From: Antedon mediterranea
Taxonomy: Eukaryota > Animalia > Echinodermata
Direction: 5' to 3'
NCBI RefSeq assembly: GCF_964355755.1
Contig: NC_092673.1
Location: 16,278,948 to 16,342,947, forward strand
Length of the DNA stretch: 64,000 nucleotides
The notes below the pieces were generated by a model. The model worked only from the letters and a program-made list of their open reading frames with translations. It had not been told where the DNA came from and did not search any database. Shown here in pieces: positions 11,401 to 57,335 of the stretch; position 1 is the first letter of the stretch; every line of letters begins with the position of its first letter. The position numbers and the translations under genes are program-made.

Positions 11401-14400
11401 GTAGGCCTATATTATTTATAGGTCTATAAAACATGAAAGAAATATTTCGTTACTGAGTGGATAAAGAGTATATCTAAAAATTGTTCTTCTTTGTACCTAT
11501 CCGCTTTCCCATCCCTCAACCCTAATGTTACATACAAAACACAAATTGGGTTTCTTTAAATGAGTCCAAATCAAACATTTGGACTCATTTTGTGATAAGT
11601 TTCTCCTTCGGAAGTAATTCCCAGGGTGCTAATTTTAGTTGACTACACAAATCATCGTGTCTATTTATTCGTTTCTGTAAACGACAATGTATTATAGTCC
11701 TGCGGTACGTACATTTGAAATCGCCAGTTTTGTTACGCTGAAATTACTGTGTATTCGAGAACCATCTGTGAGTACGACCTAGATGGTACGCTCGCTTCGC
11801 TCGCGTACCATCTATATTTAATATTTTATGTGTTGTACTGTATGTATGTTTTATCGAGGGCCCTGAATGATCAGTTCTATTAGGAACTGGATAGGCTACC
11901 CTCAGTAAATATGGTAATAAATAAATAAATAAAGACAAATTCTACATTCTAGGCTGATATTTACATTTTTTATTTTTTTACAATTAATATTTACAAAAGT
12001 GTAGCGTACACACATAATGGGGAACTAACGACTGGGGACAGTGGGCACGTTTTCTGGGCGTGCTTTAGTAGGACCAGAAAAGCGCCCTTATTGTAAGCCT
12101 TTAAAGGTGCAATTCCAGGTCTATATTGACAAAATTGTTTGACATCAGCCTAAACCATGGTGGGGCTTGAGTGATCTTTATTGTGTTTTGACAAACAGGT
12201 ATAAAAACTAAATTGGTTACTGGTCATAAAACAGAATATAAATAAAAACATTCAAAAAGTTCAAAGCATATTGAAAACTTACGATAGATGTTTTTAATCG
12301 CATTTCCTACTGCCTAATTCTGAATCATACCAGTTATTCATTTCAGGATTACTTTATTTTCACTTTACCCATTGAAACCATGCTAATCAACTGTATGTTG
12401 CTAGAATTTCAACGATTTAGATTCAGGGTCGCTGTCAAAAAATGTCTATATGTTTGGATGAGTTTGAGTTCCACAATTTTTTTTAGGACATAATTTAAAT
12501 TAATAACTGTAGTTGTTAACTGTATACATTATTATTATTATAGTATATTCAGAATGAATGATTTCTTGTACACAGTCACCCACAAGTGTTTGTAAGGCTT
12601 TGTATCACACAGAGCCTTTATATAACCTTATATCATTGGAAAAAAAAAGCTATGACTTTAAATATAGTGTTTTTTATGAAAATATATAATATGTAATATT
12701 TTTGTTTTTTGCATTTTTTTAGATTTACCAAGAAATGTTGATGAGCAATTTCAAACACAATTTCAGAAACAGACAAGTGACAAACAGAAAACAAAACTTC
12801 TTAAGCCAGAGAGTGGTAAGTTTAAGAATAAGAGCTGCTGTATGTTTTATGATTGTATCTATATATAATTTAACAGAATTGTGATTAAAATGGGATTTCA
12901 GTAAAGAGAGAATTAGACGCTAATGTTATTTAAAAAAACATTTCTGAGCGGTACTGCAAAAAGGCGAAAAGTGTGCAACTGATAACAAATAACAAATGGA
13001 GAGATTTTATTTATTATAAATAAAACAGTTGATTGTTTCCATTTAAAATACTGTAATAATGGAATGAAGCTAGTTTGCAGATTTATGGGGCATGCTTGCT
13101 TGATTTTTGCTTGATTGTTGATTTTTAGGTTATATGCATTATCATGCGATCACACGATTTCGCACGATTTAACGAAATCACGTTTGTAATCATATCTTCA
13201 CAAGCATGAATCACTTTTAAACAAAATTTGGTACTCATAAATTTCAGGTCATTATTTCATCATATGACAATACAATTACGTGCGTAGCGCACATAACGCA
13301 TGTGTACACGCGCTTAAAATTTCCAAAATTGTCAAAATTTATTTTCGATGAAATTACAGTACGTTTCAGGCAATTTTAAGCATTTAAATAATTGCGATGA
13401 GTGCACAGATTTTTGCACGCGCACTGCGCGTTAAACGTTAATGCGCACTCTTTTTGTCCGATTTCTGTTGTACAACCTTTCTTTAATAATATCATCATAT
13501 TTTATTCACTTTTCAACTCGAATTTGCGTTATATGAGCACGTCAAAAGTGACAGGCTACGCACGTGTAAGTTAACAAAATGGTGAAAATATGCTAAATTT
13601 TAAAAATAATATAGATCGTCAGAATGCTCGGGAACACATATTTTTTATTTCATTTTCTTGAAATGTATGTATCATATGTATGATTGATTTATGAAATTAA
13701 GAGTACAAAAGTTGATAAAGTCATCATTAATTGCATTTTAAATTTTTAAAAATGTATTTCGACAATCAAAAAATTATGACATTTTCTTAGGCCGATAACA
13801 AACTTTAACTTTCTTTCTTCAAAATAAAAGTTCATATATTAAAGTTAAAAGTATATAGTTTGACAGTGCATCATTTTTTAACATTTTTAAAGATGTCATC
13901 ATAGTAAAAAATACACGGAGGAATCTTTCTACAACTTTTAGTCAGTTGTGTATGGCTCGGTGGTCTGTGCTCGTGTCTATGGTATTCAAGGTACCGAGAT
14001 CGAGTCTCACATTGGGAAACGAAATAATATTTTTTTTATTATCCATATTGTTTGTTCAATTTTATTTTTTAGTGTATAGATTATACACATAATTTATAAT
14101 GAAATCTAGATAAAAAGTAAGTAATGTCTTTATTATTATGTAACAATGTGGTTAATGACATTATACGCAGAGGGATCTTTGATCGGATTGTGATACCGGC
14201 TATTGTATTCACGTTAGCAAGATCCTATATCTATATATAAGTTTATGTAAGGGCAAAATTCGATAAATCGCGGTTTATTTCTAGAATTTATACTCGATGG
14301 TATATAAAGTTGGTTCGTACTTTCGGTACTCATTTTAACCATCTGATGTAACCCTGTTTACTAATTAAATTGAGTTAAATAATTAGTTATTGACAATTAA

Positions 14401-15883
14401 AACAAATTCAGGTTCAACGATTTGCCCCAAATAGGGGTGTTTCGTGGTTGTGGTATTCACTGTATAATGGATGTCAATCTTAATAAATACCCACACACAA
14501 TAATACGAGGATGCTTCTCATTTTCCTATCTCCTCCTCAATAATTGTTTTTAATAGCTGAAAACTGGTTGAACAGCTCGAGTACAGCATCATAATGTTGA
14601 AGATTTTCTTTAAAAAATACTATTTTGATATGATAGATTTAATATACGTTTATACAAATGTTTTGATCTGGGATAAATGGAACATTCCAATCTCTGTTCC
14701 ACAAGTTTCTATTCCCTCAGGCGTCGTAAAGACAAGTACAGTCATAACAGAAATTCGATCCATTTTTTTTTTCAATCTGTGCGGATTACCAATAAAAAAA
14801 AAAAAAAAAATCATATCTTTAACAACGTATTAACAGGAATACTATCAAGTTTCCAACTCTTAACCAACGGAGGAACTACTTTTATTGTATTTGTCTCTAT
14901 AAATGTATCAATGTGTCATTTGGGTTCTTTCTCCTTTCTTTATTTGAATATTCTTAAAAACGGATTTACCATTATGGGCCCTCAACAAGACAAAACAACA
15001 AACAACAACAAAGAATTATAAAAATTAAAATAAAGATATGAACAAGATGATAATGACAAAGAAGTTTGTGTTAATAAGAATGACATTACTCTAACATTAT
15101 AATTAGTATCATATTTTAACACAAGAATATAATGCTGATTATTAAGACAAACATAAAGTGGGTAGTTTTGTTGTACTGTAGTTGAATTTCTAAAGCTGAT
15201 TATAGATATAGAAAGTTATTATAATGTTTCACAAATCTATCTGAAAACAATGATTTCAACAATAAATATAGCATAGCATAGTTAAATGTAGACAGTGAAC
15301 AATTTTATTCCCTGGTGGTAGTGTTTTCTCTGCTTTGGCCCTCCTCAGCACTCCACATTTTGCTGAAACAAATAAAAATATAAATTTACATCATTGTGTG
15401 AACAGGTGCCATGTTAAAATATATTAAATATAAATTAGACAAATTTCACAAATTTCATATATATCTTGTTTTTAAAATAGACTTATATATATATTATATA
15501 AAAATCATAGATAAAATCTCATTGATAAGATGATAAGTGAGGGTACCAATGCCTATTATTGTAGATAAAGGTTATATATAATAATATGATTGTTATCATG
15601 ATGATGATCAAGATATGATAATGACACTCGGGCTATATTCAGACATAGCCTCACCAGTCTTTGTAACCTACACCAGTATAAAAATATAGAAATTATTATT
15701 ATATGGTAGCATTATGAACATTAACAATTTTTGCCAAGTTGTGTCTATTAATATTTCTTTTTATGAAAAATATGTGTTAAATATTTTGTATGTTACATTT
15801 TTTAGATTTACCAAGTCTTGTTAGTGAACAGTTTGAGAAACTAATGGTTGAAGAACAGAAAACAAAGCTTAAACCAGTGATTG
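2153..15883 (+). CDS. Short exons encoding a low-complexity E/Q/T/K/S-rich region
   Basis: DLPRNVDEQFQTQFQKQTSDKQKTKLLKPES (two copies), DVQDGSVTSALPQSDIQGSQQ, DEQDDTEITTQENEQ, ELTKQLTSNSLSTVNEELQTQMKKGMIEEQERKLEAES, EVTKQFASDSSDTLSDEFQTQVVEQETKPEPES, DLPSLVSEQFEKLMVEEQKTKLKPVI. All are phase 1-1; the 25 nt and 32 nt exons together sum to 57 nt. Confidence 0.72.
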
Positions 15884-18800
15884 GTGAGTTTAAGAATAGT
15901 ATAAGGAGTTGTATGGTTCAATGTAACATATTGTGATTAAAATGGTATTTCAGTAGTGGACTTGTAGTAAGAATTTCATTCATTTTGTTTATCATATATT
16001 ATATAATATACAAATTCTTATAATTGCGTGCAACTTCAATAGCTTAAATTGTCCTTGGCTGTACTGCTATGATTATAAGTTTCTCAATCATGGTTCAAAA
16101 TTTGGCACAAAACATTTTCAATGAGTTGAAAGATTAAGAGAATAATTTAATTGGTCAGATGTTTTGTCTTATTCTGACGTAATTGCACTGTATACTCAGT
16201 TCAATGAGAACACTTTGCGAACAAATTTAAAAGTATTTCACAGATTGGACTCAAACCCATGACCTCCAGATTACTAGCATTGCGTATATACCTCCAGACC
16301 ACCGAGCTCAGTAGTCTAAAGAGGTTTGAGTCCCATCCACACACTCATTATAGTGTAAATATCTTTTTAAATGGTTACATATTATTTTAGTTACTGTTCA
16401 TGTATTAATTACAACAGATGGCATGGTAATGATACCACAACCAAAGTTGGCTGCAATAATATTAAAAAAATGAAAAACTATTTTTGTTATAAAATTAAAT
16501 AGAACTAACACTGTGCAAGTCAAGTTGAAATTAATGAATTGAGGAAAATAGATAATCTTACATTGCTGTATATAAATTGTTCTGCTAGTTAACTTAATGA
16601 CATGTTCAAATATAAGCTGTATTATCTACTTACTGTACAGTGTTAATATAATCTTGACAATAAACATGATTTGGTACTATTTTTGTTAAGAAGTTATACT
16701 CTAAAGAGAGCTAACATTGTAAGTTTGTGACGGAAGAAAGTATAATTGTATAATGAAGGAGATTGTAACAATTACTATATAACAAACACAATTAAAATAA
16801 TATTTCATTCTGCAGATCAAATGGAGTTAATTGTGGGATCCACAGGTGGAACTCTTCACCTTAAGGATGAAGACATAAAGTTGCAGATACAACCTGGAGC
16901 AATTGAAGGGGAGAAAGTTAAAGTATCTCTAGAACATTGTTTTGAGGAAACAGGCATGCCTGTACTTTATCCTCATGGATCAATAATATCACCTATTGTT
17001 AAATGTGGACCAGAAGGCACCAGCTTTAACAAGCCCATTTCATTGTCATTTCCACACGATGCTGTAAATGAAGAGAATTGGGAATTCACTCTACTTGTTA
17101 AAGATCGCATTCAAGATGAATGGAAACGTGATGAAAAGGACATACAGTTTACTTTAAAAAACGGTCGATGTTATATAACATTAATTCATTTCAGTTTTTA
17201 TGCACTAATTGGTCATGTAAGAAATTTCTTTGGTAAGAAAAGAATGTTGTTAGGAGTTTTTGGAAAGATGCTTGCAAATGATGAATATCAACTTCAAACA
17301 AGACTTTTTAAGCCGTCAGATAAACAGGTAATTACTATTTGTTGTTAAACTGTATTTAAATAAGGTAGTTCTTAATTTACTTACATTAACAAATATTTTC
17401 AAAATATAGATATAATAAATAGTTGTTTTGTCATATTTGGTCAATAACATTAACCTAGGGTAGTTAATTTGGCATAATATTTATTCTCTTATTTTTATAT
17501 ACCTTAAAATTATACAGTGTACAATCATGTATTGAATTGATTCCTGATCATTATAAAATATGCTGTAAAGAAGTAAACATGATGATTGCATTGTACACTT
17601 CCCTCATATAATTAATAAACTAATATACACAGTCACAAATAACATTAAGTATATGTATTTCAGACGATAAAAGAAGAGCACAGTGAAATTGGTGAGAAGC
17701 CTTTAATAACACCAGTAGATATACTATCTATGTATAAGGACATGAACATTACTGTAGCAGTATCACAACAGGAATGGAAAGTTCATGAGAAAAAAAAAGT
17801 AGGAATATCAATATTTTTAGTAGATTGGCATGGTAAAGAATTATGCATTAAACATGTTTTTGCAGGAATACCACATAACTTGAGAATTCATAATGATAAT
17901 TGATCAATAAATAAAATCTCTATTGCTATCCATATATTTAGCATACTGGATCACGATACTGAGTTAAGATCTTTAACTCTGTCTACACTGTCAAACTAGT
18001 TTGACAAAAAAAGTGTGATATATACAAATATGGTAGTGATATGCCCAAAAATGGTAGTGATATGACATCATCTTGTCCATATATAGGCACATTTTGTTTG
18101 ATAGTGTAGACAGAGCTTTAGAATAAAAATGCTGTCTTTTGATTAGTCTCGTTGGAGGATGCACACTTTTAATTGCAGTTAGCCATTTTTATATTTCTCA
18201 TTGAGAGAAAAACTCTTTGAATGAAAGCATTATCATAACATATAACACATAACATTATAAACAAAATTATTTAAAAAAAAATGTATTCACCAAAGCAAAT
18301 CAATTTAACTACAGTGCCTTTGAGCTGTAACTTTTTATCTCCTGGCTCCTTTTTTCCCTTAGACTGTCACTGCTGAATACCTATGGCGTGGAACACCATT
18401 GAAGAATTTTCTTTTAAAAAGAGGTAATTCATCAGCAAAAGTCCTAAAGGCAACAGTATCACTGTCACAAGAGTCAAATGATATTGATCCAGTGGAAGTG
18501 AATTGTAAGTATTTAAAATGCAACAACAATTAAAGTCTAAATTTAGAATGATTGTAATAAATAAAATGTACTATTCAAATACGGTAATCAGACATTACCA
18601 TCCATGACAATAACCACCCATTATTAACTGTACCATTGTTAGAATATGGGGTGGAATCAATATAGGTGTTGGCTTGTTTTTTATCTAGCACTACAATACA
18701 CTTTGGTTACATTGCTAGTTCCTAAAACACCTTAATTCTTCCGCATATCAAGCAGAGGATTTTTATTTCGAATATCGGTTGGGTGTTTTTTTTTCTAATT

Positions 18801-21800
18801 CTTACAGATTTTCTCATCTTAATTTGTTTATATTATTTAATTTCCAGTATAATATTACTAGTCAAGTGTTTCTATATATATATAAATCTGGTTTCTTTTT
18901 TTATTGAAAAAATGATTAAATATTTTATTTGTTATAGGTGATGTTGTGACATCAAGACTAAATCCAGGTATGTTATATTAATTGTGGTAATGATTAAGTC
19001 TGTTTTCATCTTGACCAGAGAAAAGGCATGAGCCAATACGTCTGAGGCAGATACTAGATGCAAGGGCTGCCAGCAGTTCTGATTTTGAATGCTTGATGGG
19101 ACCCCAACTCCCAGACGGTCTCCTATCCAAGCTCCAACCGGGTCCAAAGTTGCTTAACTTTGGTGATCAGACAGAAAACATGAAAACATGATATCATGTA
19201 GTGCATGAACACAAAACAAAAAACTGACTTCAATTTTTAGAATTTAATTTACCACCATTTCTATGGAAAATTGTACAATAAAGGGCAGCCTTCAGTACCA
19301 TTTTGTCTGGCACTATTAGACTGGTTCAGGGACGATTCGGCCCTGAGACGATTCGGCCCGGGACTATTCGGCCCACTTTTGGTGGGACGATTCGGCCCAC
19401 TTTTGGGCCGAAACATCCCACTTTGTGGGCCGAAACGTCTCAATTTAGACCAAATTCATATTCATTTTTTTGGGTATTTATCAAGTTTTTAAAGGTGTTT
19501 AACAATCCGTATTTTATTGATATTGACAATGTTGATATAATATATATAATAAATTACTAAAAAAAACGTAATTTTATATTCAATTTATTACTTCGAAAAC
19601 CTTGTTTATTTTGTGCATTCGCCAAGCGGCCAACAGAGGGCGTAACTTGTTTACATCGTTCGCGTGACTAAAAATTTATCATTTTCGACAATGTTTTCAA
19701 AATGTTCGCTTTATTGCATCTTTATCCCTAGTAGTACTACCCCATAGTCTCTCTGAAAATAAAGTTTGGGGAAAAAGCTTATTTTATGCTTATAAAATGC
19801 ATATCAAAGCCAATAAATTTAAGTGTGCCGAATCGTCTCAGGGCCGAAACGTCCCGGGCCGAATAGTCCCGGGCCGAATCGTCCCAGGGCCGAATCGTCC
19901 CAGGGCCGAATCGTCCCGGGCCGAATCGTCTCAGGGCCGAATCGTCCCGTTACCCTATTAGACGGATTTACTTGACCTTGGTTATAATCCTGCCCAATGT
20001 GAATAGTTATATGGTAAGTGCCAGCAACGTTGCAGGCATCTATACCGGCATTTTGCCAGCACTATGTGTGTCTTTTGGTGCAGGTGTATCAAACCAAGGC
20101 ATTAGGCAAGGTAATAACACTCTTTAGTTACAGTACTACTTACATTTATAAAAACATATGTAATAAATTTATGCTTATTTTTTATGCTTATTGTATGTGT
20201 TTTTAAGCATCAAGGAAAACCAATTTCATGTTCGCCTTGTTGTGTTCATGACAATAAAGATTATCTTTATTGTCTATTCTGAAATATCTTATCTTTATTC
20301 TGAAATATGTTCAAGATGAATAACATTTTATATTATTACATTTAAATTTATCTAATTTTACAATCAACATTAATTATGCATTTTACATTTTACGTAAGGC
20401 CAACATTTGAGTAGCAAAATCCAATTTATCTTGATCTCATTTGTCATCATATTTATTAATTGATTGATTGATTTTATTCGATATTCATACATAAAAGTTA
20501 AAATATACAATGTATAAAAAGAATACCTGGATAACCCATTAAGTCGACAAAAAAGTAAACTTATTTCCAATGGGGTCCAATCCGTAATAACTGAAAAGTG
20601 AGTGGTTGGACCTAGCACAATATATCATTAAGTATGACGCAGTAAAAATGAAAAAACAAGAAAATACATATAAGACAAGATAATATTAAAAAAAATAATA
20701 TTAAAAAATAACTGATATTCCAAGCTGTTCATTATTAAAATATTCTTTATGTTTTATTTTGAATGTTGCATTATTTTGTATTGATTTGAGTGAATTGGGG
20801 AGCCTGTTCCAGTCATGGATACCTAAGAAATAAAAATTTGTATCGTTAACGCCAGTAGCCTTAGGAGTGACAAAATTAAATGTTGTACCCCTGGTGAAAT
20901 GGTTATAATGATCAGAAATTAACAAAAAGTTATCCTTAAGGAAAGATGGCGTATTAAAGTTATAGCGAATTTTGTGAAAATAATTTAATCTTAAAAACTT
21001 ATTTCTGAGGCTGACATTAAGAAACCCAAGATCGGAAAGCTCTTTGGCACCTATGTGAGACCTGATCGGACCAACATTTAAAATGAAACGTGCCATCCTT
21101 TTTTGGGCAGTTTGTAATTTATGTTTAAGATTCTTATTGACACCGCCGTACCATGCCGAGGCAGAATAGTCAAATGTACATTGTATTAAAGCAGTGCTTA
21201 ATAGTTTACGACATTTTTTATTCAAGCACGAACTTTGCCTATGTAAAAACTTCAACCTTGACTTAACTTTACTGATAACACTAGTTGCAATAATATCACA
21301 TGATACATATTGGTCTAAATCAATACCCAAATATTTAACTTGCTTAGTACTTTTGATTGTACGGCCCATTAATTCCACAGAAAACTCTTTAACTTTGTTA
21401 AGCTTCGCTCTGCTACCAAAGAAAATACTTTCGGTTTTGCCCACATGTAATGATAATTTGTTTTCAGTTAACCAGTCCTGGCACTTAGCTAGGACAGTAC
21501 TTAATTTATGAGCGATTTTGGTGGCATCGTGATGGGAATACAGAATCGTAGAATCATCAGCATATAGAAATAATTGAACATCAGAATCAATACAAGAAGC
21601 AATATCATTTAAATAACATAGAAAAAGAATAGGGCCCAAGATGCTACCTTGCGGGAGTAACTATAAGAGGTTCAGAGCAGGTACCATTCACACTGACAAC
21701 TTGTGTACGGTTAGCGAGATAAGATTGAAACCAGTCAGTACACTTAAAACCCATGCATTTTAGCTTGTTAATTAAAATCACATGATCGACGATATCGAAA

Positions 21801-24800
21801 GCTTTTTGTAAGTCAATTAGAACCATTCCAGTAAGAAGGCCTTTGGACTTATTGTTTTTTAAACCGTCGATGAGATTTATGAGGTTGCTTTCAGTTGAAT
21901 GGGCCTGCCGAAAACCGGATTGATAGGCATAAAGTATATTATTTTTGGAAAGATACCTTTCAACTTGTATAGCTACATATTTTTCAAGAATCTTAGATAC
22001 CGTAGGCAGAATACTAATCGGCCGATAATTCTCAACACTTGTTTCTAGTATTTTTCTTAAATAGTGGGGTAACTTTAGCAGTTTTTAGATCATGAGGAAA
22101 ACAATTAGTTTTAAACAAAAGGTTAATGATATGAGCTATCGGTTCAGCCAAGATTATCGCACCGTCACGTAAAAATCTTGAGGGAATATTATCTAGACCG
22201 CTTTTACATTTAGGCTTTCGAGTTGAGTTTTAACAAATTCTATGGTAACAGGCTCTAGCTTAAACATTTTTCCTTTTAATTTAACATATGAAGATCGTTA
22301 GTGGACATGGTGGAAAAACCTATGCATTTTGGGAGTTTTTTGACGAGTGTTGACGCAACATTCGTGAAAAATTCATAAAACGAGAGGCAACGCCTTTTGG
22401 ACAGAAAGTTTTTTTACCATTGTCTGGCATCGAGAACGATTTTAGTGTTTGTTTTACATTTCTTCTCGTATCCGAGCTGTTTGAGGGTTTTCCATAATTT
22501 TTTAGGGTTGTCTTTATTTTCATCAATCTTATTGAGAAAATAATTAGATTTAGTTTTTTTGATCAGCCTAGAGGCACAATATGATTTGTATATATCTAGA
22601 TTAGATTTATCTTTCTTGAATTTTTTTAAAAGTGTGTCTCTTACTTTGATTTCATTGGCAATTTCGGAGGTAAACCAGGGTGCTATGTTTTGTTTAAGTC
22701 TAACTTTTTTTATTGGCGCTATTGAGTCGATCACCTTAATGATGATATCTTTAAGAGTTAACCACGCGATATTTACATCGTCTTATTAGTGACAACAGAC
22801 CAATCGATATCGTTAAGTGTTTCAAGATAGTTATTTACATTATAGTTTTTTAAAGATCGTAATTTAGCGGAGTTGTGTTCATTTTTGTGAACATGAGACT
22901 TAGGTATTTTTCTAGTGCAATAAATACGAAAATGGTCACTAAGGCCAATGTTAATTACTCCAGATTGCTTCACATTATTTTGTACATTAGTAACAATGTG
23001 GTCCAAACATGAACTTTTTTCTTTTTCCTATTCTAGTTATATCCTTATTAATAACATTACTAAAACCGTTTCTTATAAGACAATCATTATATCTTTGCGA
23101 TACTGGATTAATATTTAGATTACATATGTTAAAGTCACCAAGAACTTGAATTTCACTACTCTCTTTGATTTTTGATACAGTTTCTTCAAAGTTGTTCAGA
23201 AATAAAGATACATTCTGTTTTGGTGGGCGGTAGCATGTACCAATCACAATTTCCTTTGAACGAGGCAGATATATATTTATCCAAATTGCTTCAAAACCGT
23301 TGATATCCAGTTCATTTCTACGTGTGAAGGCGCGTTCATTTTTAACGTAGATAGAAACTCCACCACCAGACCGGTTTCTGTGCTTCCTGAGCGCTGTATA
23401 TCCATCAATTTTGATCTCGTTATCGGTGATGGATTCGTCCAGCCACGACTCGCTGATGGATATAACAGTAGCTTTGGTCTTTGATGCGATGTGCCTTAGT
23501 TCAGACATTTTATTAACTAATGACCGCGCATTAAGGTGAATAAAATGTAGGCCTTTGTTAAACACGTTGAATTCCTCGCTTAAATGCTCGTAAATGTATG
23601 TCCATCTTGTCGGGTTTCTGTCACATTATTTGCGTCGGCAATAAGTTCGTCATGAATATTAATGTCACTGATGCATTCATCATTCGGAAGCTGATTGAAG
23701 AGGCATTCTTGACATAACCAATTTTCTTTCGAGTTCCGTTGCTTATCATATACAATTTTAGTTATTCTTCCGCACTTGATATGGTAGATACATTTGCATT
23801 CAGTGCATTTTGCCCTGTGCGTTTTCGCAATCGGTTTTTTACAAGTTGAACATGGGTTTCTGATTGGTCCTGGGTTTGGAGAAACGTCTCCAGCGATAAT
23901 AATAAGTACCATCAGGAAACTTGGGTTTTTTAAGATTAAGCGGCAAACTGGATACGGTTTAGAAGATCCGTACATTGTCCAAAAGGGAGACATTATATTC
24001 AGGTTATCCGTATGAAAGTTTCTATGTAATAGTCAGCAGTTATCATATAGCATACTTAAAATAACATTTTGTAGTTTTTTAATTGTAGTAATAATAATTG
24101 TAAGGTATGATTTCACAACATTCCAAAAACTTAACTTTTCTACAGATGGGGAAGATGAAGATGAATCGCTCATCAAGCAACCAGGTATGTTCTATCTGTA
24201 CCCCTTTTTTAGTGAAGAACATAAACATGTGTATAGATACCTGTTTTTTTTTTTTTTCAGACTAAATATCTTTAATAATATCTGTTTTCTTAAAGATCTT
24301 TTTAGAAATTGTTACTTCTTTCATTCTACTTGTAATAATATGAAGCTACTGACATTTTTGTGCATGTTTTTAAAACCTGAATATTAATGATTGTATGTCT
24401 TTGCATTATAGACATCTCAGATGAGGATTTCTGGCAACTGTTGATTGATACAGCAGAGTGGTATGATCGACTTGGATATCTCAAGAAATTGAAACTTTTA
24501 TACAAAGACCATCTGAAGAAATCTAGAGTGGAGGTGGAGAGAGCTAATAGTGTTTGGGATCTGCTACAGGATTTAAGAGCCTTAGGAAGTTTGAGTCCAT
24601 CAAACCTTACTATTCTATATGACACAATAACAGTAACCAAGCAATTTGGCTTCAAGTCAAACGTTGAGAATCAACCACCAGAAGATATTAAGAAACATGT
24701 AGTATCAATGTTGACACCTTTCAGACAGAAGGTTTATCAACTTGGAGTAGAACTTACGAAGGATGAAGTATCAACACTTGCCAGGTTATTTAACAATGTA

Positions 24801-27580
24801 TTGGTAAAGACATATCAAGATAGCTGGAGTATGATTATGGACTTTGAACATAGAGGGATCATTGATGAGGATTTCACAAAGATGGTTGAGTTTCTTAGAG
24901 TTTTAGAACAAAATGGAATGACAAAAGCTAGGAAGATTTTCATTGATGGTTGGTTGATTTATTTGTTTGTATTTGTTGTTTAAATCATGGTTCATTGTTA
25001 AAACATATTCAGTACATACTGTAGTACACTTCAATCAAGTAAGAGTATTGTAACAAATTAAACATTTTAGGGAGATTCAAATTATTATGATGTCCCTGTC
25101 TGTCTGCTATTATAGCTGATTAAGGATATCAACCAACATTCGGTTAAATGGCAATTCAGCTGAATTAAATGACAAGTTAGTAAAATAACAATAATATGCT
25201 CAATGAGTCCAATGGAAAATGAACTGAACTGAAACGTATGTGTGTATTCCATGCTTTTATCCCTATCAATCAGATTGACCCAAACCTTTGGAACATAATA
25301 ATAATCTGCATTTTAAATTTGTGAATGCCTCTCAATTCCTACAAAGCCCAGCATACCATTTGAGGGTCAAAAGACCGACTCTGGGGCTGATTCAGATCTT
25401 TACTATTGCAAGAGGATCATTAAGTTGTATAAGAAAGCCACAGGTTGACAGCGTACCCATCACCACCTCCATGCCAATTAATGCACCCGGACACTTCATA
25501 AACTTGAGTTTAGATTATGTGACTTCTGCCTATCCCATTAATAACTTACTGAAACTAGAGAATGCAAAACTCCACCTACAATATAATTTTCCTACACATT
25601 AAAATCTCTCCCTGAGAAAAGTGGTTTGTTTTTTCAGTAAGGTAATTTGGCCTAATTGCACTGCATAACAAATTAATGTGAATTTTCCATGGTTGAAATC
25701 CTGCCTCAAATTGGGCTGAAGAAGGGAGTCTTTTTTAATCATTTCTTTTTTTTTAAATAATTTTTTTGTAAATTTTGACATTTGACCCTGCCTGTTCAAA
25801 ATTGAATTACATTATGATGGATAATTTTGGCCAAATTTCAGTTTAAAAGTGTGGCCTGGCAGGATATATAAAGAAAACATTTATAGTAGGTTGTGACCTT
25901 GACCTTTCATGGAAGCATCCACCTACGCAGAATGAAAAAAAAAAAACAAGAAGTCAACAAGTAGTCTACATAATTAGATTTATTCTAAATAAGTCTTAAG
26001 TATATATGTCTTCTGGTATAGGTATGTCTTCTGGTGCAGGCGCATCTTCTGGTGCAGGCGCATCTTCTGGTGCAGGCGCGTCTTCTGGTGCAGGTGTGTC
26101 TTCTGGTGCAGGTGTGTCTTCTGGTGCAGGTGTGTCTTCAGGTGCAGGTCTTTCGTCTGACACAGGTGAATGTCAAGGTAACTATCAAGGCACTAGAGCA
26201 ACACTGTACAGCAAAAAAATATATTATTGTTGATATTTAGCCAGGAGTTTTTGTATACAATATTAAAATAGACTAGAAATCTTTAATACCTTTCTATACT
26301 AAGTGATTGTAGTTGTTTATGTAGGGTGTAATCTAAATTGATTAAAATCTATATTTATCAGGCAACCTTAAAATAACTTGGAAGTTTTTCTTTGACTTTC
26401 TCCAAATCTATTCTGTTCATTTCCTTTTCAGGTAGACATTATACATTAATCCTGTTTGTTGCTTATTGTTCACACAATATCAGCTTAGATAATTAAACTT
26501 TCCAAAATGTTATCACAAATGTTCGTTTAAAGTTTATATGAATGTTTCTATGTAATAGTCAGCAGTTATCGTATAGCATATACTTAAAGACGTATTGTCC
26601 CCCAAAAACATGAAAAATGAAGATTAATTAAATCAGACTTTGAATAGGTTGTTATGTAGTTTTAAAAAAGTAAATCACTTCCGAAGAAAAAAAACGGAAA
26701 AAAATAATGTTTTCACTTATAAAATAACATGATAAATGGTTAAATTCAACCAAAAATCCATTGGCTGGCAGCCAATTTTACCATTTTTTGCTTTAACTTC
26801 CAGTTTTTTCAGGTAAATAATTTTTTTTTTCGATCCAATTTTTGCTCAAAGTCAATAACTATTAGTGACATTAAAATGGCATATTCAACAACAAAAATTT
26901 AAAAAAAATATTTTTCAGGGGGACAAATCAACAAACATCCAACCTATTTATTTTTTATTTAATCAAATTTATTTAATTTTAACATACTATTAAATGTTTT
27001 AGGTTTAACTGTGTTCATACTTTGTTAAGGGTTAGGGTGTTTAATTGTTTAATTATTTCTCACCATATCTATTACTTAATGAGCTTGCTTTGTTGTTATT
27101 TCAGGTATGCATCATGGCGGGTAAGTATTTTCCACATATGTACTGTTATTTGATCAAATTAAAATATAAGTTTGTTAATAAATTGGCAATTTCTGTGTGT
27201 GATTTACAGAATACATTAAACTTTTATTTTCATTTCATTTATTTTGCCATATAAAATGTATAAAAAAACAATTAAAAGAAAACAAAACCAATAAAAAAGA
27301 AAAAGATTACTCTCTGCCTCCCCACAAAGGCAGACAGGATTACCAAAAGCATAAGTAAACACTGTCTAGTGGCTCTCGTCAAGGTCAATACAGGGCTGGT
27401 GATAATCAACTAAAGCCTGTTTTCTAGTCTACGTTATTCAATTTCAACACGATTGTTTGAAAACAATCAAGTTGAAAGAAACAACAATTTTAATGTTAAT
27501 ACTTTATTAGAATTTTAATTATTTAATTGTACCTTGTTATTTCTAGTCAAAAAGAAAAGAGACGTTGCAAGTTGTTATAA
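2153..27580 (+). CDS. Spliced gene, 5'-incomplete: acidic repeat region - ZU5(HFS) - UPA-like - tandem DED-like - GS linker - polybasic CaaX
   Basis: AG/GT-bounded, phase-compatible exons: 2153-2245, 3602-3664, 3958-4002, 4184-4297, 4514-4612, 6694-6718, 7993-8024, 12723-12815, 15806-15883, 16816-17327, 17664-17798, 18363-18504, (20060 or 20084)-20110 uncertain, 24146-24184, 24412-24948, 26022-26177, 27105-27120, 27547-27581 (TAA at 27578-27580). The frame stays open across all joins. Confidence 0.8.
2713..2800 (-). mobile_element. 5S rRNA-derived SINE head (SINE3-like) or 5S pseudogene
   Basis: Minus strand acggcc...cttgtctgatcaccaaagttaagca...cttggatggtagaccatctggga aligns with the 5S A-box and C-box region. 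Confidence 0.75.
3286..3550 (+). mobile_element. DINE-1/pearl/Tsp-like (Helentron-associated) non-autonomous repeat fragment
   Basis: (TG)n microsatellite followed by a repeated core ccacagtttttatccrattctcaccaaa and ggtcaaggtca motifs. Confidence 0.5.
4982..6119. mobile_element. Tiny palindromic element (about 52 bp) with 7-bp TSD, split by a MITE
   Basis: gtattat-CAGGGAAGAGTTAAATTACAAT...ATTGTAATTTAA[insert]CTCTTCCCTG-gtattat. Confidence 0.7.
5024..6106. mobile_element. PIF/Harbinger-type MITE
   Basis: TIR of about 45 bp starting GGCCCTGTTCAGACCCATGGCGTTAGACCG; TAA TSD on both sides. Confidence 0.88.
7388..7956. repeat. Minisatellite, 59-66 bp unit, about 9 copies
   Basis: gggagtggggagggtttgctagaaccat...acgagtctgttatccttattata repeated. 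Confidence 0.95.
8113..8734 (+). mobile_element. Solo LTR (4-bp TSD, Gypsy-like)
   Basis: TGTAATATAA...TTATATTACA ends; TSD tcag; AATAAA at 8661. The empty site is visible in the paralogous intron at about 4351-4370. Confidence 0.85.
8830..10400 (+). mobile_element. 5'-truncated CR1/L2-group LINE (RT domain, ORF 8892-10355)
   Basis: NYRPISVL, QSGFRP, FIDLRKAFD, GIPQGSNLGP, FADD, HKHLG motifs. Upstream KSAGHDGI...IIAPFLTQII is in another frame (frameshift near 8955). No endonuclease domain. Confidence 0.93.
10482..11815 (+). mobile_element. Non-autonomous Helitron-like element (other copies: 1-1245, 5'-clipped by the window; 14230-~14700, diverged)
   Basis: 5' end a^TCTATATATAA is shared with 14230. 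A GC-rich hairpin tagatggtacgc-N11-gcgtaccatcta lies near the presumed 3' end. The terminus reads CTAT rather than CTRR, so the 3' boundary is uncertain. Confidence 0.55.
10571..13000 (+). repeat. Copy 2 of the segmental duplication, carrying a duplicate exon at 12723-12815
   Basis: Identity to 1-2430 ends after aacaaatgga. Confidence 0.95.
13952..14010 (+). other. tRNA-like A/B-box segment inside an unclassified repeat (about 13125-14229)
   Basis: tggctcggtgg ... gagatcgagtctc; no full cloverleaf. Confidence 0.35.
14230..14700 (+). mobile_element. Diverged third copy of the Helitron-like 5' region
   Basis: Colinear with 10482-~10950 with many substitutions. Confidence 0.65.
16244..16308 (-). 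mobile_element. tRNA-derived SINE head
   Basis: Minus strand agctcggtggtc...ggaggtcatgggtttgagtcc (A and B boxes). Confidence 0.5.
16816..17327 (+). CDS. ZU5 domain exon (UNC5/ankyrin/PIDD type) and start of UPA
   Basis: VGSTGGTL...KLQIQPGAI...ISPIVKCGPEGTSFNKPISLSFPHDA...W...YITLIHFSFYALIG matches the ZU5 pattern; bounded by tgcag and gtaatt. Confidence 0.9.
17664..18504 (+). CDS. Two exons of a UPA-like beta domain (17664-17798, 18363-18504)
   Basis: In frame after ZU5: TIKEEHSEIGEKPLITPVDIL...ITVAVSQQEWKV and TVTAEYLWRG...KVLKATVSLSQ. UPA is inferred from position and beta-strand pattern. Confidence 0.65.
17975..18117. mobile_element. Short MITE (a half-copy lies at about 48315-48350)
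   Basis: ctctgtctacactrtcaaa ... tttgatagtgtagacagag inverted termini in tta context. Confidence 0.7.
19105..19180 (-). mobile_element. Second 5S-derived SINE head, within an intron block paralogous to 2490-2960
   Basis: Same 5S-like boxes; flanks 18880-19320 align with 2500-2935. Confidence 0.72.
19322..19954. mobile_element. Mutator/foldback-like MITE with subterminal repeats
   Basis: Arrays of gggacgattcggccc and gggccgaatcgtccc at the two ends; 9-bp TSD ctattagac; empty paralogous site at about 2927-2940. Confidence 0.85.
20460..24005 (-). mobile_element. Degenerate CR1-group (Crack/L2-like) LINE: 2A-like - PHD - APE - RT
   Basis: Frameshifted ORFs: GDVSPNPGP plus a Cys/His finger (23580-23993); HLNARSL, SESWL, GDFN (22987-23565); DHI, SDH; IDLQKAFD; YADD (20701-21639). 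3' AATAAA(ATCA)n tail at about 20460. Confidence 0.93.
24412..24948 (+). CDS. Tandem death effector domain (DED)-like exon
   Basis: Two helical units of about 80 aa: FWQLLID...LKKLKLLY...ERANSVWDLLQDL...LSPSNLTIL and LTPFRQKVYQLGVELTKDEV...SMIMDFEHRGII. These follow the caspase-8/cFLIP DED1-DED2 pattern; the RxDL motif is not conserved. Confidence 0.72.
26022..26177 (+). CDS. Exon made of 18-bp repeats encoding a (SSGAGA/V)n linker
   Basis: About 8 copies of TCTTCTGGTGCAGGY...; phase 1-1; donor caag/gtaact. Confidence 0.7.
26588..26929. mobile_element. TTAA-flanked (Kolobok-like) MITE; related inverted copy at 43715-43945
   Basis: ttaa-AGACGTATTGTCCCCC...GGGGGACAA; right end degraded. Confidence 0.55.
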
Positions 27581-27581
27581 G
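27105..27581 (+). CDS. Terminal micro-exons (16 nt and 35 nt) encoding GMHHGGQKEKRRCKLL*
   Basis: tttcag/GTATGCATCATGGCGG/gtaagt joined to ttctag/TCAAAAAGAAAAGAGACGTTGCAAGTTGTTATAAG/gtatag. Confidence 0.72.
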
Positions 27582-27584
27582 GTA

Positions 27585-27830
27585 TAGTATTTAACTTAAA
27601 ATTTAAATTTGTTTCTAAAGTCATGCATTGTTTTAGTATTTAACTTTAAATTTGAATTTGTTTCTAAAGTCATGCATTGTTTTAGTATTTAACTTTAAAT
27701 TTGAATTTGTTTCTAAAGTCATGCATTGTTTTAGTATTTAACTTTAAATTTGAATTTGTTTCTAAAGTCATGCATTGTTTTAGTATTTAACTTTAAATTT
27801 GAATTTGTTTCTAAATTCATTGCATTGTTT
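27585..27830. repeat. Minisatellite, 49 bp, about 5 copies
   Basis: tagtatttaactttaaatttgaatttgtttctaaagtcatgcattgttt. Confidence 0.95.
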
Positions 27831-28677
27831 TTCTATTCAAAGACTAATGTAGTTTCAAAATGTAAGAAATCATTTGTCTTTTTTCCTACAAAACCTATAA
27901 AATGCTTTTTGTTGTAGTCATTTGCAGTATTTTAAAACAACTTTAAATGAAAGCACTCAAGAATATTTCTAAAAAGATGAGGATTTATGAAACATTTTTC
28001 TCTTTTAGATTACTGGTTGGTAGTTACTGTATATATGATGGATTAACTGCTGTTGGTGGCTGCAGTATCTGGTGTGTACATAGTGACCAGGTCTCTTACT
28101 CAGTCAAAAAATGCAACAGATGAAAAACAGTACACTCTTCACCAATCTAACAGTAGATTTCATACATTTTAAAGGCATTGTATGGATAATATTGAAGATA
28201 GATGTGAAATTATAAAGATATGAAAGCATATGGAAGTTTTGACACAATGACAAATGAATAAAGATCTAGAGAGTTATTGCCATCAGAGTCAAAGTTACAA
28301 TCCGCTACCACCACCCCTCTTTTTATAAAAAACCAAATAAACAAAAAAATTATTTTCCCCTCAAGAAATTCAGCCATGCTTGTCAGATGAAACGACAACA
28401 TTGATTTAAGAATTTTTGTAAAATACAGCTTTCTTAAAAAAGAACTTTACAAATTTCAGTTTATTACCATTCCAAATTCTATTATTGATTTTATAAAAAG
28501 AATAAAAAAATAAAATTAGACTTTTTAGTTTGCCTCAAGGAAATTGTGTAATTGACCAAAAAAGGACCAAAGAAAAAAGAAATCATTAAATGAAATAAAG
28601 TAGGTAATGCAATGCCTGTATTATGTATTTAAATAATAACTCATGTTTGATATTTAGTTTTATTAAGCTTAACATCC

Positions 28678-29160
28678 TGTAGTAAACAGTTGTCAACATA
28701 TAGAAGCTGTAACTCAGTTGTCAATTGTGCACTCAATGCTGTAGTAGACAGTTGTCAACATATTGAAGCTGTAACTCAGTTGTCAATTGTGTACACAATG
28801 CTGTAGTAGACAGTTGTCAACATATTGAAGCTGTAACTCAGTTGTCAATTGTGTACTCAATGCTGTAGTAGACAGTTGTCAACATATTGAAGCTGTAACT
28901 CAGTTGTCAATTGTGTACTCAATGCTGTAGTAGACAGTTGTCAACATATTGAAGCTGTAACTCAGTTGTCAATTGTCTACTCAATGCTGTAGTAGACAGT
29001 TGTCAACATATTGAAGCTGTAACTCAGTTGTCAATTGTGTACTCAATGCTGTAGTAGACAGTTGTCAACATATTGAAGCTGTAACTCAGTTGTCAATTGT
29101 GTACTCAATGCTGTAGTAGACAGTTGTCAACATATTGAAGCTGTAACTCAGTTGTCAATT
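28678..29160. repeat. Minisatellite, 62 bp, about 8 copies (two related halves of about 31 bp)
   Basis: ctgtagtagacagttgtcaacatattgaag + ctgtaactcagttgtcaattgtgtactcaatg. Confidence 0.95.
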
Positions 29161-29645
29161 CTACTCATTTATTTTGTCATTTCATATTGAAAACCAATTA
29201 ATCTTATAAAAATAGTAAGCATGTCTGTCTGTCCATTTTCAAATAGTATTGTATGATTACAGTTTAGATATCTGTTACATAATTAGCATACACATTTTGA
29301 TTGGTAGGATATGGGAACAAAAAGTGGGTTTTTTTTAATATTGATACAATATTTAGTTGGATGGAAAATTAGAGATGCCACTGCAGCTATAAACATGTTA
29401 AAGTAAAATAAAAATTTGATAAATGAAGAAAATTCAAATTAATAAGAGGACGCGATGGGGTATGAGGGAAGCAAATGGGTGTTTGATATAATGATACTGA
29501 TGATAATAATGTTGCTATTTTTTTGTATTAATAATGCGGTAGTTATGATTAATGATGCTAAATTGTATTTTAAATCAAGAAATCCTGTAATAATTTAGAC
29601 CCATGACAATCTAAGTGTATTGTAACCAAGACAACAACATTTTCC

Positions 29646-31090
29646 ACACAATTTGTTGTGGATAAATCCAAAAGCTGTAGGAATCACTGTATTTATAGTA
29701 CAGGGATTTTAACAACACAATTTGTTGTGGATAAATCCAAAAGCTGTAGGAATCACTGTATTTATAGTACAGGAATTTTAACAACACAATTTGTTGTGGA
29801 TAAATCTAAAAGCTGTAGGAATCACTGTATTTATAGTACAGGGATTTTAACAACACAATTTGTTGTGGATAAATCTAAAAGCTGTAGGAATCCCTGTATT
29901 TATAGTACATGGATTTTAACAACACAATTTGTTGTGGATAAATCCAAAAGCTGTAGGAATCACTGTATTTATAGTACAGGGATTTTAACAACACAATTTG
30001 TTGTGGATAAATCTAAAAGCTGTAGGAATCCCTGTATTTATAGTACAGGGATTTTAACAACACAATTTGTTGTGAATAAATCCAAAAGCTGTAGGAATCA
30101 CTGTATTTATAGTACAGGGATTTTAACAACACAATTTGTTGTGGATAAATCCAAAAGCTGTAGGAATCACTGTATTTATAGTACAGGGATTTTAACAACA
30201 CAATTTGTTGTGGATAAATCTAAAAGCTGTAGGAATCATTGTATTTATAGAACAGGGATTTTAACAACACAATTTGTTGTGGATAAATCTAAAAGCTGTA
30301 GGAATCACTGTATTTATAGTACAGGGATTTTAACAACACAATTGTTGTGGATAAATCTAAAAGCTGTAGAAATCACTGTATTATAGTACAGGGATTTTAA
30401 CAACACAATTTGTTGTGGATAAATCTAAAAGCTGTAGGAATCCCTGTATTTATAGTACAGGGATTTTAACAACACAATTTGTTGTGGATAAATCCAAAAG
30501 CTGTAGAAATCACTGTATTTATAGTACAGGGATTTTAACAACACAATTTGTTGTGGATAAATCCAAAAGCTGTAGGAATCACTGTATTTATAGTACAGGG
30601 ATTTTAACAACACAATTTGTTGTGGATAAATCCAAAAGCTGTAGGAATCACTGTATTTATAGTACAGGGATTTTAACAACACAATTTGTTGTGGATAAAT
30701 CTAAAAGCTGTAGGAATCCCTGTATTTATAGTACAGGGATTTTAACAACACAATTTGTTGTGGATAAATCTAAAAGCTGTAGGAATCCCTGTATTTATAG
30801 TACAGGGATTTTAACAACACAATTTGTTGTGAATAAATCCAAAAGCTGTAGGAATCACTGTATTTATAGTACAGGGATTTTAACAACACAATTTGTTGTG
30901 GATAAATCTAAAAGCTGTAGGAATCACTGTATTTATAGTACAGGGATTTTAACAACACAATTTGTTGTGGATAAATCTAAAAGCTGTAGGAATCACTGTA
31001 TTTATAGTACAGGGATTTTAACAACACAATTTGTTGTGGATAAATCTAAAAGCTGTAGGAATCACTGTATTTATAGTACAGGAATTTTTA
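29646..31090. repeat. Minisatellite, 69 bp, about 21 copies
   Basis: cacaatttgttgtggataaatcyaaaagctgtaggaatcactgtatttatagtacagggattttaacaa. Confidence 0.97.
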
Positions 31091-31220
31091 CAAAAAATGA
31101 CCAAATTGATAATGATGTTATTATATTAGTGATGTGCAATTGTCAGTCTGTGTTAACTGTCACCCTTTTTAATTCATATTTTGCAATATCAATGTTGTCA
31201 TCCTTCATGCTGCTTTTTGG

Positions 31221-33000
31221 TTTGGCCTACTGATTAATAGACCTACTGTAAATATATAATAAGTCAATTAACATTACTATTTTGTTCTCTCTTGGTTAAA
31301 GTTTGGCCTACTGTACTTAATAGGCCTATAATAAATATAATAAGTCAATTAACATTACTATTTTGTTCTCTCTTGGTTAAAGTTTGGCCTACTGTACTTA
31401 ATAGGCCTATAATAAATATAATAAGTCAATTAACATTACTATTTTGTTCTCTCTTAGTTAAAGTGTGACCTACTGTACTTAATAGGCCTAACAATAAATA
31501 TAATAAGTCAATTCACATTAATATTTTGTTCTCTCTTGTTTAAAGTTTGGCCTACTGTACTAAATAGGCCTAACAATAAATATAATAAGTCAATTAACAT
31601 TACTATTTTGTTCTCTCTTGGTTAAAGTTTGGCCTACTGTACTTAATAGGCCTATAATAAATATAATAAGTCAATTAACATTAATATTTTGTTCTCTCTT
31701 AGTTAAAGTTTGGCCTACTGTACTAAATAGGCCTAACAATAAATATAATAAGTCAATTAACATTACTATTTTGTTCTCTCTTGGTTAAAGTTTGGCCTAC
31801 TGTACTTAATAGGCCTATAATAAATATAATAAGTCAATTAACATTACTATTTTGTTCTCTTTTAGTTAAAGTGTGACCTACTGTACTTAATAGGCCTAAC
31901 AATAAATATAATAAGTCAATTCACATTAATATTTTGTTCTCTCTTAGTTAAAGTGTGACCTACTGTACTTAATAGGCCTAACAATAAATATAATAAGTCA
32001 ATTCACATTAATATTTTGTTCTCTCTTGTTTAAAGTTTGGCCTACTGTACTAAATAGGCCTAACAATAAATATAATAAGTCAATTAACATTACTATTTTG
32101 TTCTCTCTTGGTTAAAGTTTGGCCTACTGTACTTAATAGGCCTATAATAAATATAATAAGTCAATTAACATTAATATTTTGTTCTCTCTTAGTTAAAGTT
32201 TGGCCTACTGTACTAAATAGGCCTAACAATAAATATAATAAGTCAATTAACATTACTATTTTGTTCTCTCTTAGTTAAAGTTTGGCCTACTGTACTAAAT
32301 AGGCCTATAATAAATATAATAAGTCAATTCACATTAATATTTTGTTCTCTCTTGGTTAAAGTTTGGCCTACTGTACTAAATAGGCCTATAATAAATATAA
32401 TAAGTCAATTCATATTAATATTTTGTTCTCTCTTAGTTAAAGTTTGGCCTACTGTACTTAATAGGCCTAACAATAAATATAATAAGTCAATTCACATTAA
32501 TATTTTGTTCTCTCTTATTTAAAGTTTGACCTACTGTACTAAATAGGCCTATAATAAATATAATAAGTCAATTCATATTAATATTTTGTTCTCTCTTAGT
32601 TAAAGTTTGGCCTACTGTACTTAATAGGCCTAACAATAAATATAATAAGTCAATTAACATTACTATTTTGTTCTCTCTTAGTTAAAGTTTGACCTACTGT
32701 ACTTAATAGGCCTACAATAAATATAATAAGTCAATTAACATTACTATTTTGTTCTCTCTTAGTTAAAGTTTGGCCTACTGTACTTAATAGGCCTAACAAT
32801 AAATATAATAAGTCAATTAACATTACTATTTTGTTCTCTCTTAGTTAAAGTTTGGCCTACTGTACTTAATAGGCCTACAATAAATATAATAAGTCAATTC
32901 ACATTAATATTTTGTTCTCTCTTAGTTAAAGTGTGGCCTACTGTACTAGGCCTAACAATAAATAGAATAAGTCAATTAACATTAATATTTTGTTCTTTCT
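31221..33000. repeat. Minisatellite, 81-82 bp, about 22 copies
   Basis: aagtcaattaacattactattttgttctctcttrgttaaagtttggcctactgtacttaataggccta... Confidence 0.97.
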
Positions 33001-33847
33001 TTTCTAAGTTTGTAAAATTACAAAAACAAAACATGACAAACACATATGTGTTTGTTCTGTTTTTTTGTTGTAATTTTGAACATATTTACATTAATTATAA
33101 ATAACTAACATGTGCATATTATGCAAATGAGACCAGGTAAACGGAAGTACAGAACGGTGTTTAAATATAATGAATTGAATAAATTGTACATTTTTTTGTA
33201 CAGAACTGAATTATATTTTTTATATGAATGAATTTTCTAATACCTATTTGTTGAAAACGAAATGTTTTATATTTTGATATTTTTCACTTTTAATTCAATT
33301 TTGTAAATTAAAACTCAATTAAGTATTTATGCTGCTGTGTTTTAATGTTTATATTCATATTTTTATAATAAATACTAATGAATGAAAAGCTTTTTTTTGT
33401 TTGTAAGGATTGTGTGTTTGTTTGGAAGGGGGAGATTTTAACATCGAGGTGATCATTATACTGTATCAAAATGTACGTGCTTTGCTATTCATCGTATATT
33501 ATACAAAATATTCCACCAATCCAGAGAGTAATAAAGTTCTTCGATAATTACACATATAATGTTACGTAGAAAAATAGTGGTTGCGCCCTCTATAAAAAAT
33601 AAAAGTTTATTCACCCACCAACAAACCACTCACAACATGTCGAAGAATGTCAAACACAAGAAGTAAGTTTTTGTTTCATAATATTATCATATACCATATC
33701 ATATACGGTATACGGTATATACTGTATCCTAGGCCTGCCTACTTAGTACTATATTATATCAGCCTAGATAGGCCTAGCTAGGCTAGTTCTAAGTAGCTGG
33801 GGCAGGCCCTACCTCTAGCTATCAAAAAAGGCTTTTTAGTGGGCCTA

Positions 33848-43135: not shown

Positions 43136-44248
43136 TTTTACCAATGTACAGAAACAATTTTATTGCATTAAATATTTTTTCTTTAGTTTAAAATGTATGT
43201 CAGTATAGTGATTCATTTGTTCATGTTTGAAAGAGTTGGTGTCAGTTTATTTCAAAATGTTAGCATAACTCAATGTCGATGACCTATTACAATATAGTAC
43301 ACCCTTCCTCCCCTGAAATTGACACTTAACAAGTATATATAACTTTACTTATTTAATTTAACTTTACAATCAATTGTGTTAATAATTAATGCATTTTAAG
43401 TTAAAGGCTAAAACTTGAATAGAGAAAGCTGATTTGTTTTGGTCTTTTTTGTCATAATTGTTAAAGTTATATTATTATATTATGAGAGTGACAAATAAAG
43501 TATTTACACAAATATATATATTTTGGCATTATGTGTACAATATAAATATAAAAAAAGATATTTTAAGTTTAAACACTCAAGTCGCTAGCATTACAAAGAA
43601 TATATAATTTCTTTTTAAAGAATTGTAGGCAATTTAAAAAAATGTCCTAAATAGGATAGTTTTTGCAGTTTAATAAGCATGACAGATTTGCTCCTGTATA
43701 CTGAAATCCATTAAAGATATATTGTCACCTGGAAAATATATATATATTTTTCTTGAATATGCAATTTTAATTTCATAATAGTTATTCACTTTGACCAAAA
43801 ATTGGAGCGAAAATAAAATTTTTTACCTGAAAATAATGCAAAAAATAGTCAAATTATCAGACAATGGGTTGAAACTGCAGAATTCCCTATTCAAAGTTTG
43901 ATTTTATTAATCTTCATTTTTCATGTTTTTGGGGGACAATATATCCAGTACCCTGTGGACCCCTGTTGAATAAATTTGAACCTGGTGAACTTAAGAACAA
44001 CAATAATTAATGTTTAAATTTAAGCAACAACAAAATAAAGCTTAATGACTGATGATTGACAGTTTGGATTTATTTGTCATTGTCATGATAATAAAACAAT
44101 TTAAAATAAAAAAGTAAACAAAATGTTTTTATTGTACATGTGGATTGTTATTTTTTGTTTAATTTTGCATAAAGCATGCACACTACTCCCAGATAGTGTA
44201 TCTTAGTTTCATTATGCAAATTACGATTTTGTAGGTTTAGATATTCAT

Positions 44249-57304: not shown

Positions 57305-57335
<31 letters not shown>

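Follow-up and report, generated by a model that had tools for sequence, protein, structure and literature searches.

The stretch of Antedon mediterranea DNA analysed here (64,000 nucleotides (nt) of contig NC_092673.1, below called the window) is AT-rich, with 27-40% GC in 2-kb bins, and carries on its forward strand a predicted gene that likely encodes a ZU5-UPA-DED-DED adaptor of cell-death or immune type. The reading frame of this gene runs into two terminal micro-exons of 16 and 35 nt that together supply a candidate prenylation signal, and the exon behind them resembles the transmembrane tails of paralogous proteins. The reading that we favour, at a probability of roughly one half, is that the micro-exons form the regular end of the gene, that a stop codon cut off a former transmembrane tail, and that a geranylgeranylated CKLL end would now hold the DED pair at the membrane. 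The features of the gene are as follows.

12723..12815 (+): predicted linker exon, phase 1-1, with AG/GT ends and an open frame; 87% identical to residues 13-42 of paralog P0011.
15806..15883 (+): predicted linker exon, phase 1-1; 83% identical to residues 43-72 of P0011.
16816..17327 (+): ZU5 exon and start of a UPA-like region (Pfam ZU5, E 1.9e-18; UNC5B, E 3.4e-7).
17187..17195 (+): HFS motif behind ZU5, a self-cleavage site predicted from the sequence.
17664..17798 (+): UPA-like exon, recognised by tblastn to paralogs; as a single exon it has no Pfam match.
18363..18504 (+): UPA-like exon, likewise recognised by tblastn to paralogs and lacking a Pfam match as a single exon.
18938..18967 (+): linker exon of 30 nt, phase 1-1, AG/GT ends, open frame.
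20084..20110 (+): linker exon of 27 nt, phase 1-1, AG/GT ends, open frame; the acceptor is uncertain.
24146..24184 (+): linker exon of 39 nt, phase 1-1, AG/GT ends, open frame.
24412..24948 (+): tandem DED exon (Pfam DED, E 7.5e-11, two stretches).
26022..26177 (+): linker exon of a Ser/Gly/Ala repeat with an 18-nt unit; the repeat also occurs in paralog P0162.
27105..27120 (+): 16-nt micro-exon, phase 1-2, with TTTCAG before it and GTAAGT behind.
27547..27581 (+): 35-nt micro-exon, phase 2-1, with TTCTAG before it and GTATAG behind; it holds the basic run (27548-27565), CKLL (27566-27577) and TAA (27578-27580), and is homologous to the stretch that precedes the transmembrane tail in paralogs.
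28009..28120 (+): decayed transmembrane-tail exon, now predicted 3' untranslated region (UTR), placed by the strength of its acceptor and a match to the tail of paralog P0018.
28257..28341 (+): candidate polyadenylation signals, AATAAA at 28257 and 28336.

Both micro-exons and the tail that they encode are present in the DNA, with AG/GT ends and an open frame, at the coordinates that an earlier sequence-only reading had reported; their splicing is predicted. Joined to the upstream exons, the 35-nt exon reads QKEKRRCKLL followed by the stop, which lies a single base before the exon's donor, in a frame open over 12 exons from 12723. The 12-exon coding model (12723-27581; the 5' end of the gene is unfixed, and 12723 is where the model starts) has canonical exon ends and no internal stops. 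All six alternative CAG/GT sites in the repeat exon (26022-26177) lie in an identical phase, so that the terminal frame is independent of the choice of donor. What had been described as a phase shift is an ordinary phase 1-2-1 pair of micro-exons: their combined length of 51 nt (16+35) is frame-neutral and therefore leaves the exon at 28009 in frame behind the stop.

Splice sites were scored with a matrix built from merely 10-11 sites of the same gene. On this scale the donor of the 16-nt exon is the best between 26178 and 28008 and ranks among the best 0.6% of the window's GT sites, the acceptor at 28009 is the strongest of the region, and divergent copies of the 16-nt exon in DNA runs retain their AG and GT. 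With the pattern defined post hoc from the observed tail, a basic run followed by C-x-[VILM]-[LFIMV]-stop occurs at one of 1025 acceptor-like sites on both strands of the whole window (555 and 470 on the two strands, each read in three phases), namely 27547, and in 1 of 2000 shuffled introns. Under the 50-55 nt rule a stop one base before the last junction escapes nonsense-mediated decay (NMD); the claim that this transcript would escape it holds if the exon at 28009 is the last one, for which the two AATAAA motifs are weak evidence because AATAAA is common in AT-rich DNA.

The sequence-only reading had taken the exon at 28009 simply as 3' UTR and missed that it is a former transmembrane exon, in frame with the coding model and matching the tails of paralogs. 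Its frame opens with YWLVVTVY, reaches a second in-frame stop at 28044-28046 and continues hydrophobic beyond it; the frame upstream is stop-free over 12 exons, in contrast to the stop within the old tail exon. When the read-through tail (X at stops) is scored against the last 100 residues of 160 stored proteins, P0018 (score 57), P0002 (39) and P0012 (35) take ranks 1-3, the next protein scoring 34, and all three carry hydrophobic tails. The P0018 score is reached by none of 5000 shuffles, and in the reverse direction, with the 64 kb read as 4260 six-frame windows, the P0018 tail matches the exon at 28009 best (46; next 42). These are close relatives of the window gene: P0018 (XP_071948789.1) and P0012 (XP_071948739.1) have ZU5 exons 57-69% identical to its own, the DED exon of P0002 (XP_071948801.1) is 75% identical, and the tails of all three are homologous to that of the window.

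The residue-by-residue comparison places the changes at the junction between signal and helix. P0018 reads WKLLQ, one further residue and then HWWIVTVF, so that at the protein level Trp is the counterpart of the window's Cys and Gln that of its stop; in P0012 the position of the stop is taken by Lys. The Cys codon TGC is one base from a Trp codon and the TAA stop one base from a Gln codon. The protein comparison thus has a stop opposite a sense codon and a homologous tail downstream of it, as expected of an anchor conversion. In the three paralogs the sequence continues past Gln or Lys into a hydrophobic tail that is intact, and the six positions before the Cys equivalent hold 1, 2 and 0 Lys/Arg, compared with four in the window. 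Among the 17 close A. mediterranea proteins (P0001-P0016 and P0018, which include two isoform pairs), four have a hydrophobic C-terminal tail and none has Cys at position -4; together with the decayed exon this leads us to infer that the transmembrane state is ancestral. Beyond its first 20 or so codons the old tail exon is broken in a way that a 22-residue deletion, a frameshift into the IWCVH frame and a frameshift into the third frame all fit, and no reading of it restores a full transmembrane tail. Because the read-through matches paralog transmembrane tails, the prenylation signal likely arose from the segment that preceded the transmembrane anchor, and likely replaced that anchor.

The predicted protein has Cys fourth from the C-terminus, and CKLL, with Leu at a2 and at the last position, fits the sequence Cxa[L/F/I/M/V] preferred by yeast geranylgeranyltransferase I (GGTase-I) as by the mammalian enzyme (PMC11304957). 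The basic run upstream (4/6 Lys/Arg, and 6/6 in a variant copy) would be a second membrane signal. In a yeast screen that lacked this basic run, CKLL took an intermediate place, with scores of 1.07 (37 C) and 0.77 (42 C) against 0.99 and 0.056 for unmodified CASQ, 0.01 and 0.02 for fully processed CVLL and 1.38 and 6.38 for CKVL, canonical motifs lying below 0.2 at 37 C (PMC11304957). We read these values as consistent with a CKLL that is modified at least partly but is no canonical, fully processed CaaL end, and geranylgeranylation of the tail is predicted. The claim of a polybasic CaaL signal of the Rac/Rho type survives as regards the fit to GGTase-I and the basic run, but not as a canonical CaaL: a1 is Lys, not an aliphatic residue, and the motif is unlike the processed CVLL in yeast. 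Cys at -4 occurs in 4 of the 160 stored proteins, none of them a close paralog and none with a basic run, and a literature search for 'CKLL' gave no paper with that word among the matches listed.

Further versions of the 35-nt exon, which may be alleles or paralogs, are found in DNA contigs of one sample, S2. A contig of run X2 that spans both micro-exons differs by 10 substitutions, three of them within the 35-nt exon (Gln to Arg, one silent, Glu to Lys), which bring the positions before the Cys to 6/6 basic. Run X4 contains this charge-raising version along with one that has the silent change alone, and run X5 a version like that of the window. None of these versions alters the Cys, KLL, the stop or a splice site; in other contigs the 16-nt exon has diverged, its ends being intact, and the intron differs.

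Upstream of the tail, the tandem DED exon scores 42.6 bits in Pfam against a cut-off of 35.9, and its matches in PDB are to c-FLIP only and weak (E 0.23). As to the UPA-like region, paralog P0012 matches UPA at E 6.5e-5, under the cut-off, and its Atlas model compares with the UNC5 ZU5-UPA structure at a TM score of about 0.5. An HF[S/C/T] motif stands behind ZU5 in all eight ZU5-bearing paralogs (P0007-P0014); UNC5B lacks the HFS motif. PIDD cleaves itself at HF/S after its ZU5 domain (PMC3210808), and UNC5CL uses the same mechanism (PMC7883297). Self-cleavage at HFS is accordingly a prediction for the window protein as well, and the conservation of HF[S/C/T] suggests that crinoids have an entire family of DED adaptors that cleave themselves.

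The family is modular. Four A. mediterranea proteins match the DED exon at 70-75% identity and combine it with NACHT/NB-ARC or Roc-COR domains, and the ZU5 exon has nine further matches in this species, eight of them nearly full-length at 49-75% identity. A HMMER search returned 330 clusters at E <=0.001 and 8 at 1e-30, the named close relatives (E <1e-30) being all crinoid (Antedon or Anneissia) and none an ortholog. Across P0001-P0018 the modules of DED pair, ZU5 and tail recur in varying combinations with NACHT/NB-ARC, Roc-COR and transmembrane tails, and most of these genes appear to be clustered on one chromosome. A literature search that left most subscription journals outside listed no paper on the ZU5/DED family in crinoids, PMC8195603 included.

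On the favoured reading the ancestor would have been a tail-anchored protein. A Gln-to-stop and a Trp-to-Cys change, each of a single base, would have produced the CaaX box; basic residues would have been gained after the box had formed, and the old transmembrane exon would have decayed into UTR. Lipid and charge would then hold the DED pair at the membrane in place of the lost helix, and self-cleavage at HFS would leave a lipid-bearing UPA-DED-DED piece that could bind DED partners at the membrane, for example a protein of caspase-8 or FADD type. The more specific proposal, that the prenylation signal was born from scratch by two point changes, that the helix exon decayed and that selection is still adding basic residues, we hold more tentatively, at somewhat less than even odds.

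Several observations weigh against these interpretations. With respect to the lipid, CKLL is not depleted in yeast as fully processed CVLL is (1.07 versus 0.01 at 37 C), and the searches yielded neither an ortholog nor an annotated paralog that ends in CaaX. With respect to splicing, both sites of the 35-nt exon are mediocre (donor in the top 22%, acceptor in the top 28%), and no spliced read or contig joins these exons in X1, the sole possible RNA run; the RNA status of X1 is a guess, and the comparison, which covered contigs only and extended to 27584, has its joints dominated by the repeat at 26528-26999 and is uninformative either way. With respect to selection, the excess of substitutions in the 35-nt exon of the X2 contig (3/35 nt versus 7/462 elsewhere; Fisher p 0.027) is a post hoc result from a single contig in which two of the changes are adjacent, and basic residues are in any case expected where a membrane helix meets the cytosol. 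The paralog segment already supplied KLL, leaving only the Cys and the stop as new, so that fewer lucky changes are needed and the 1-in-2000 shuffle figure overstates the argument for selection.

With respect to the origin of the tail, the scores of P0002 and P0012 are modest, being reached by 50 and 55 of 5000 shuffles, and the fourth hydrophobic tail, that of P0013, is not aligned (4424 of 5000 shuffles reach its score). The P0002 tail ranks the exon at 28009 merely 8th-9th among the 4260 windows, BLASTP of the read-through exon against P0002 gave no alignment, and it is from three paralog proteins, compared at the protein level, that the direction of change is read. A profile of the four tails run against 6883 candidates recovered only its three input proteins.

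One alternative is that the tail is a broken transmembrane anchor in one copy of a gene family of fast turnover, the CaaX end being incidental and the protein soluble or the gene on its way to being lost. We regard this as possible but doubtful, and as the best of the alternatives. In its favour, many models of this lineage-specific, modular family are truncated, the ancestor supplied KLL at no cost, no other family member ending in CaaX was found, and the window itself contains a near-identical duplicate of the 5' part of the gene and an upstream copy without ZU5. Such an accident would, however, require that a Trp-to-Cys change fell exactly at -4 and that the basic residues were gained by drift, in a gene whose upstream frame is intact and whose variant copies retain the Cys and the stop while raising the charge.

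A second alternative, put forward by the sequence-only reading, is a splicing switch: by regulated skipping of the micro-exons, the protein would be made either with its lipid anchor or as a soluble form. The p46 and p42 isoforms of OAS1 are a precedent (PMC7612834). Skipping either or both micro-exons gives three paths that all end without Cys at -4, so that any skip would remove the signal; this part of the proposal stands. The micro-exon pair is frame-neutral, and skipping both adds 11 codons of the exon at 28009 up to the stop at 28044, an end too short for a membrane span and likely safe from NMD; the sites of the 35-nt exon are weak and the acceptor at 28009 is the strongest nearby. The frame neutrality is, however, explained by descent from a transmembrane-tailed form, the 16-nt exon has strong sites, and neither a 26177-28009 junction nor any other appears in X1, itself only presumed to be RNA. 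Short exons (27, 30 and 39 nt) occur throughout the gene, exons of 27-39 nt being normal in its linkers, and the skipping switch is left unsupported; we consider it unlikely. Least probable is that the micro-exons are unused and no CaaX protein is made, the mRNA either reading past 26177 (16 further codons, then a stop) or splicing to 28009: inclusion lacks RNA support and none of the three other splice paths yields Cys at -4, but both micro-exons have proper ends that are retained in divergent copies, and their joined frame matches the paralog tails.

The DNA around the gene is rich in repeats and in copies of its parts. Positions 1-2430 and 10571-13000 are 99.6% identical and form a direct duplicate of 2430 nt; it takes in 5' exons of the gene and is either a recent duplication or an assembly artefact. 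Between 2153 and 8025 lie further short candidate exons (near 2153, 2556, 3601, 3958, 4200-4297, 4512-4612, 6694 and 7992), which could be upstream exons belonging either to this gene or to a paralog; in this copy the homolog of 12903 is followed directly by that of 18874, so that ZU5-UPA is missing. A very high-copy dispersed repeat (26528-26999) lies in the intron ahead of the 16-nt exon, with an inverted copy near 43728-43941, and four tandem arrays with units of 49, 62, 69 and 82 nt occupy 27585-33001, the first starting 4 nt past the donor of the 35-nt exon. Open reading frames (ORFs) at 8862-10355 (+), 20701-24032 (-; inside an intron of the adaptor gene) and 55890-58854 (-) are presumably reverse transcriptases with endonucleases of long interspersed nuclear elements, as judged from their motifs. 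Further downstream, long inverted repeats at 48714-49153 and 55021-55408 (179 nt at 100% and 350 nt at 95%) enclose some 6 kb in which ORFs lie at 52050-52454 and 52617-53165; this may be an exon-carrying DNA transposon.

The tail shares with the ends of Rac, Rho and Rap proteins a basic run, Cys at -4 and a terminal Leu; it differs in the Lys that follows the Cys and in belonging to a protein that is not a GTPase. In its ZU5, UPA-like region and death fold, with HFS behind ZU5, the window protein resembles PIDD1, UNC5CL and CARD8/NLRP1 (PMC3210808, PMC7883297), but it has a tandem DED in place of a DD or CARD as well as a C-terminal anchor, and is not an ortholog of any of them. A CaaX end that sets the membrane location of an immune protein is known from OAS1 p46/p42 (PMC7612834) and bat GBP5 (PMC13128109), in which the box is gained or lost through splice choice or a stop. 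Both isoforms are documented for OAS1, whereas the window gene has one predicted form; in bat GBP5 a stop removes the CaaX box, whereas here a stop appears to create one. The closest parallel in route is that of CEACAM5-8, in which stops in the transmembrane exon made signals for a glycosylphosphatidylinositol (GPI) anchor (PMC2832619), so that there too, in an immune family that evolves fast, a stop and a few changes made a lipid-anchor signal out of a transmembrane anchor. The GPI anchor of CEACAM5-8 is extracellular and uses the hydrophobic exon itself, however, while the window's cytosolic CaaX box would derive from the segment before the helix, with the hydrophobic exon dropped. No paper on a CaaX box made by a stop before a transmembrane tail was found in a search that left most subscription journals outside.

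The gene family itself is lineage-specific and will concern mainly specialists. If the more tentative proposal of a signal born from scratch is right, a swap from a transmembrane to a prenyl anchor would have been caught in progress in a self-cleaving DED adaptor, with skipping of the micro-exons possibly adding an unanchored form. One stop and one Cys would have moved the adaptor from a membrane-inserted to a lipid-anchored state, with different trafficking and possible release, showing how cheaply an immune or cell-death adaptor may change its anchor and providing a cytosolic parallel to the GPI anchors of the CEACAM proteins. The paralogs that keep the old tail, together with the variants of higher charge, would then form a natural series on the birth of a prenylation signal.

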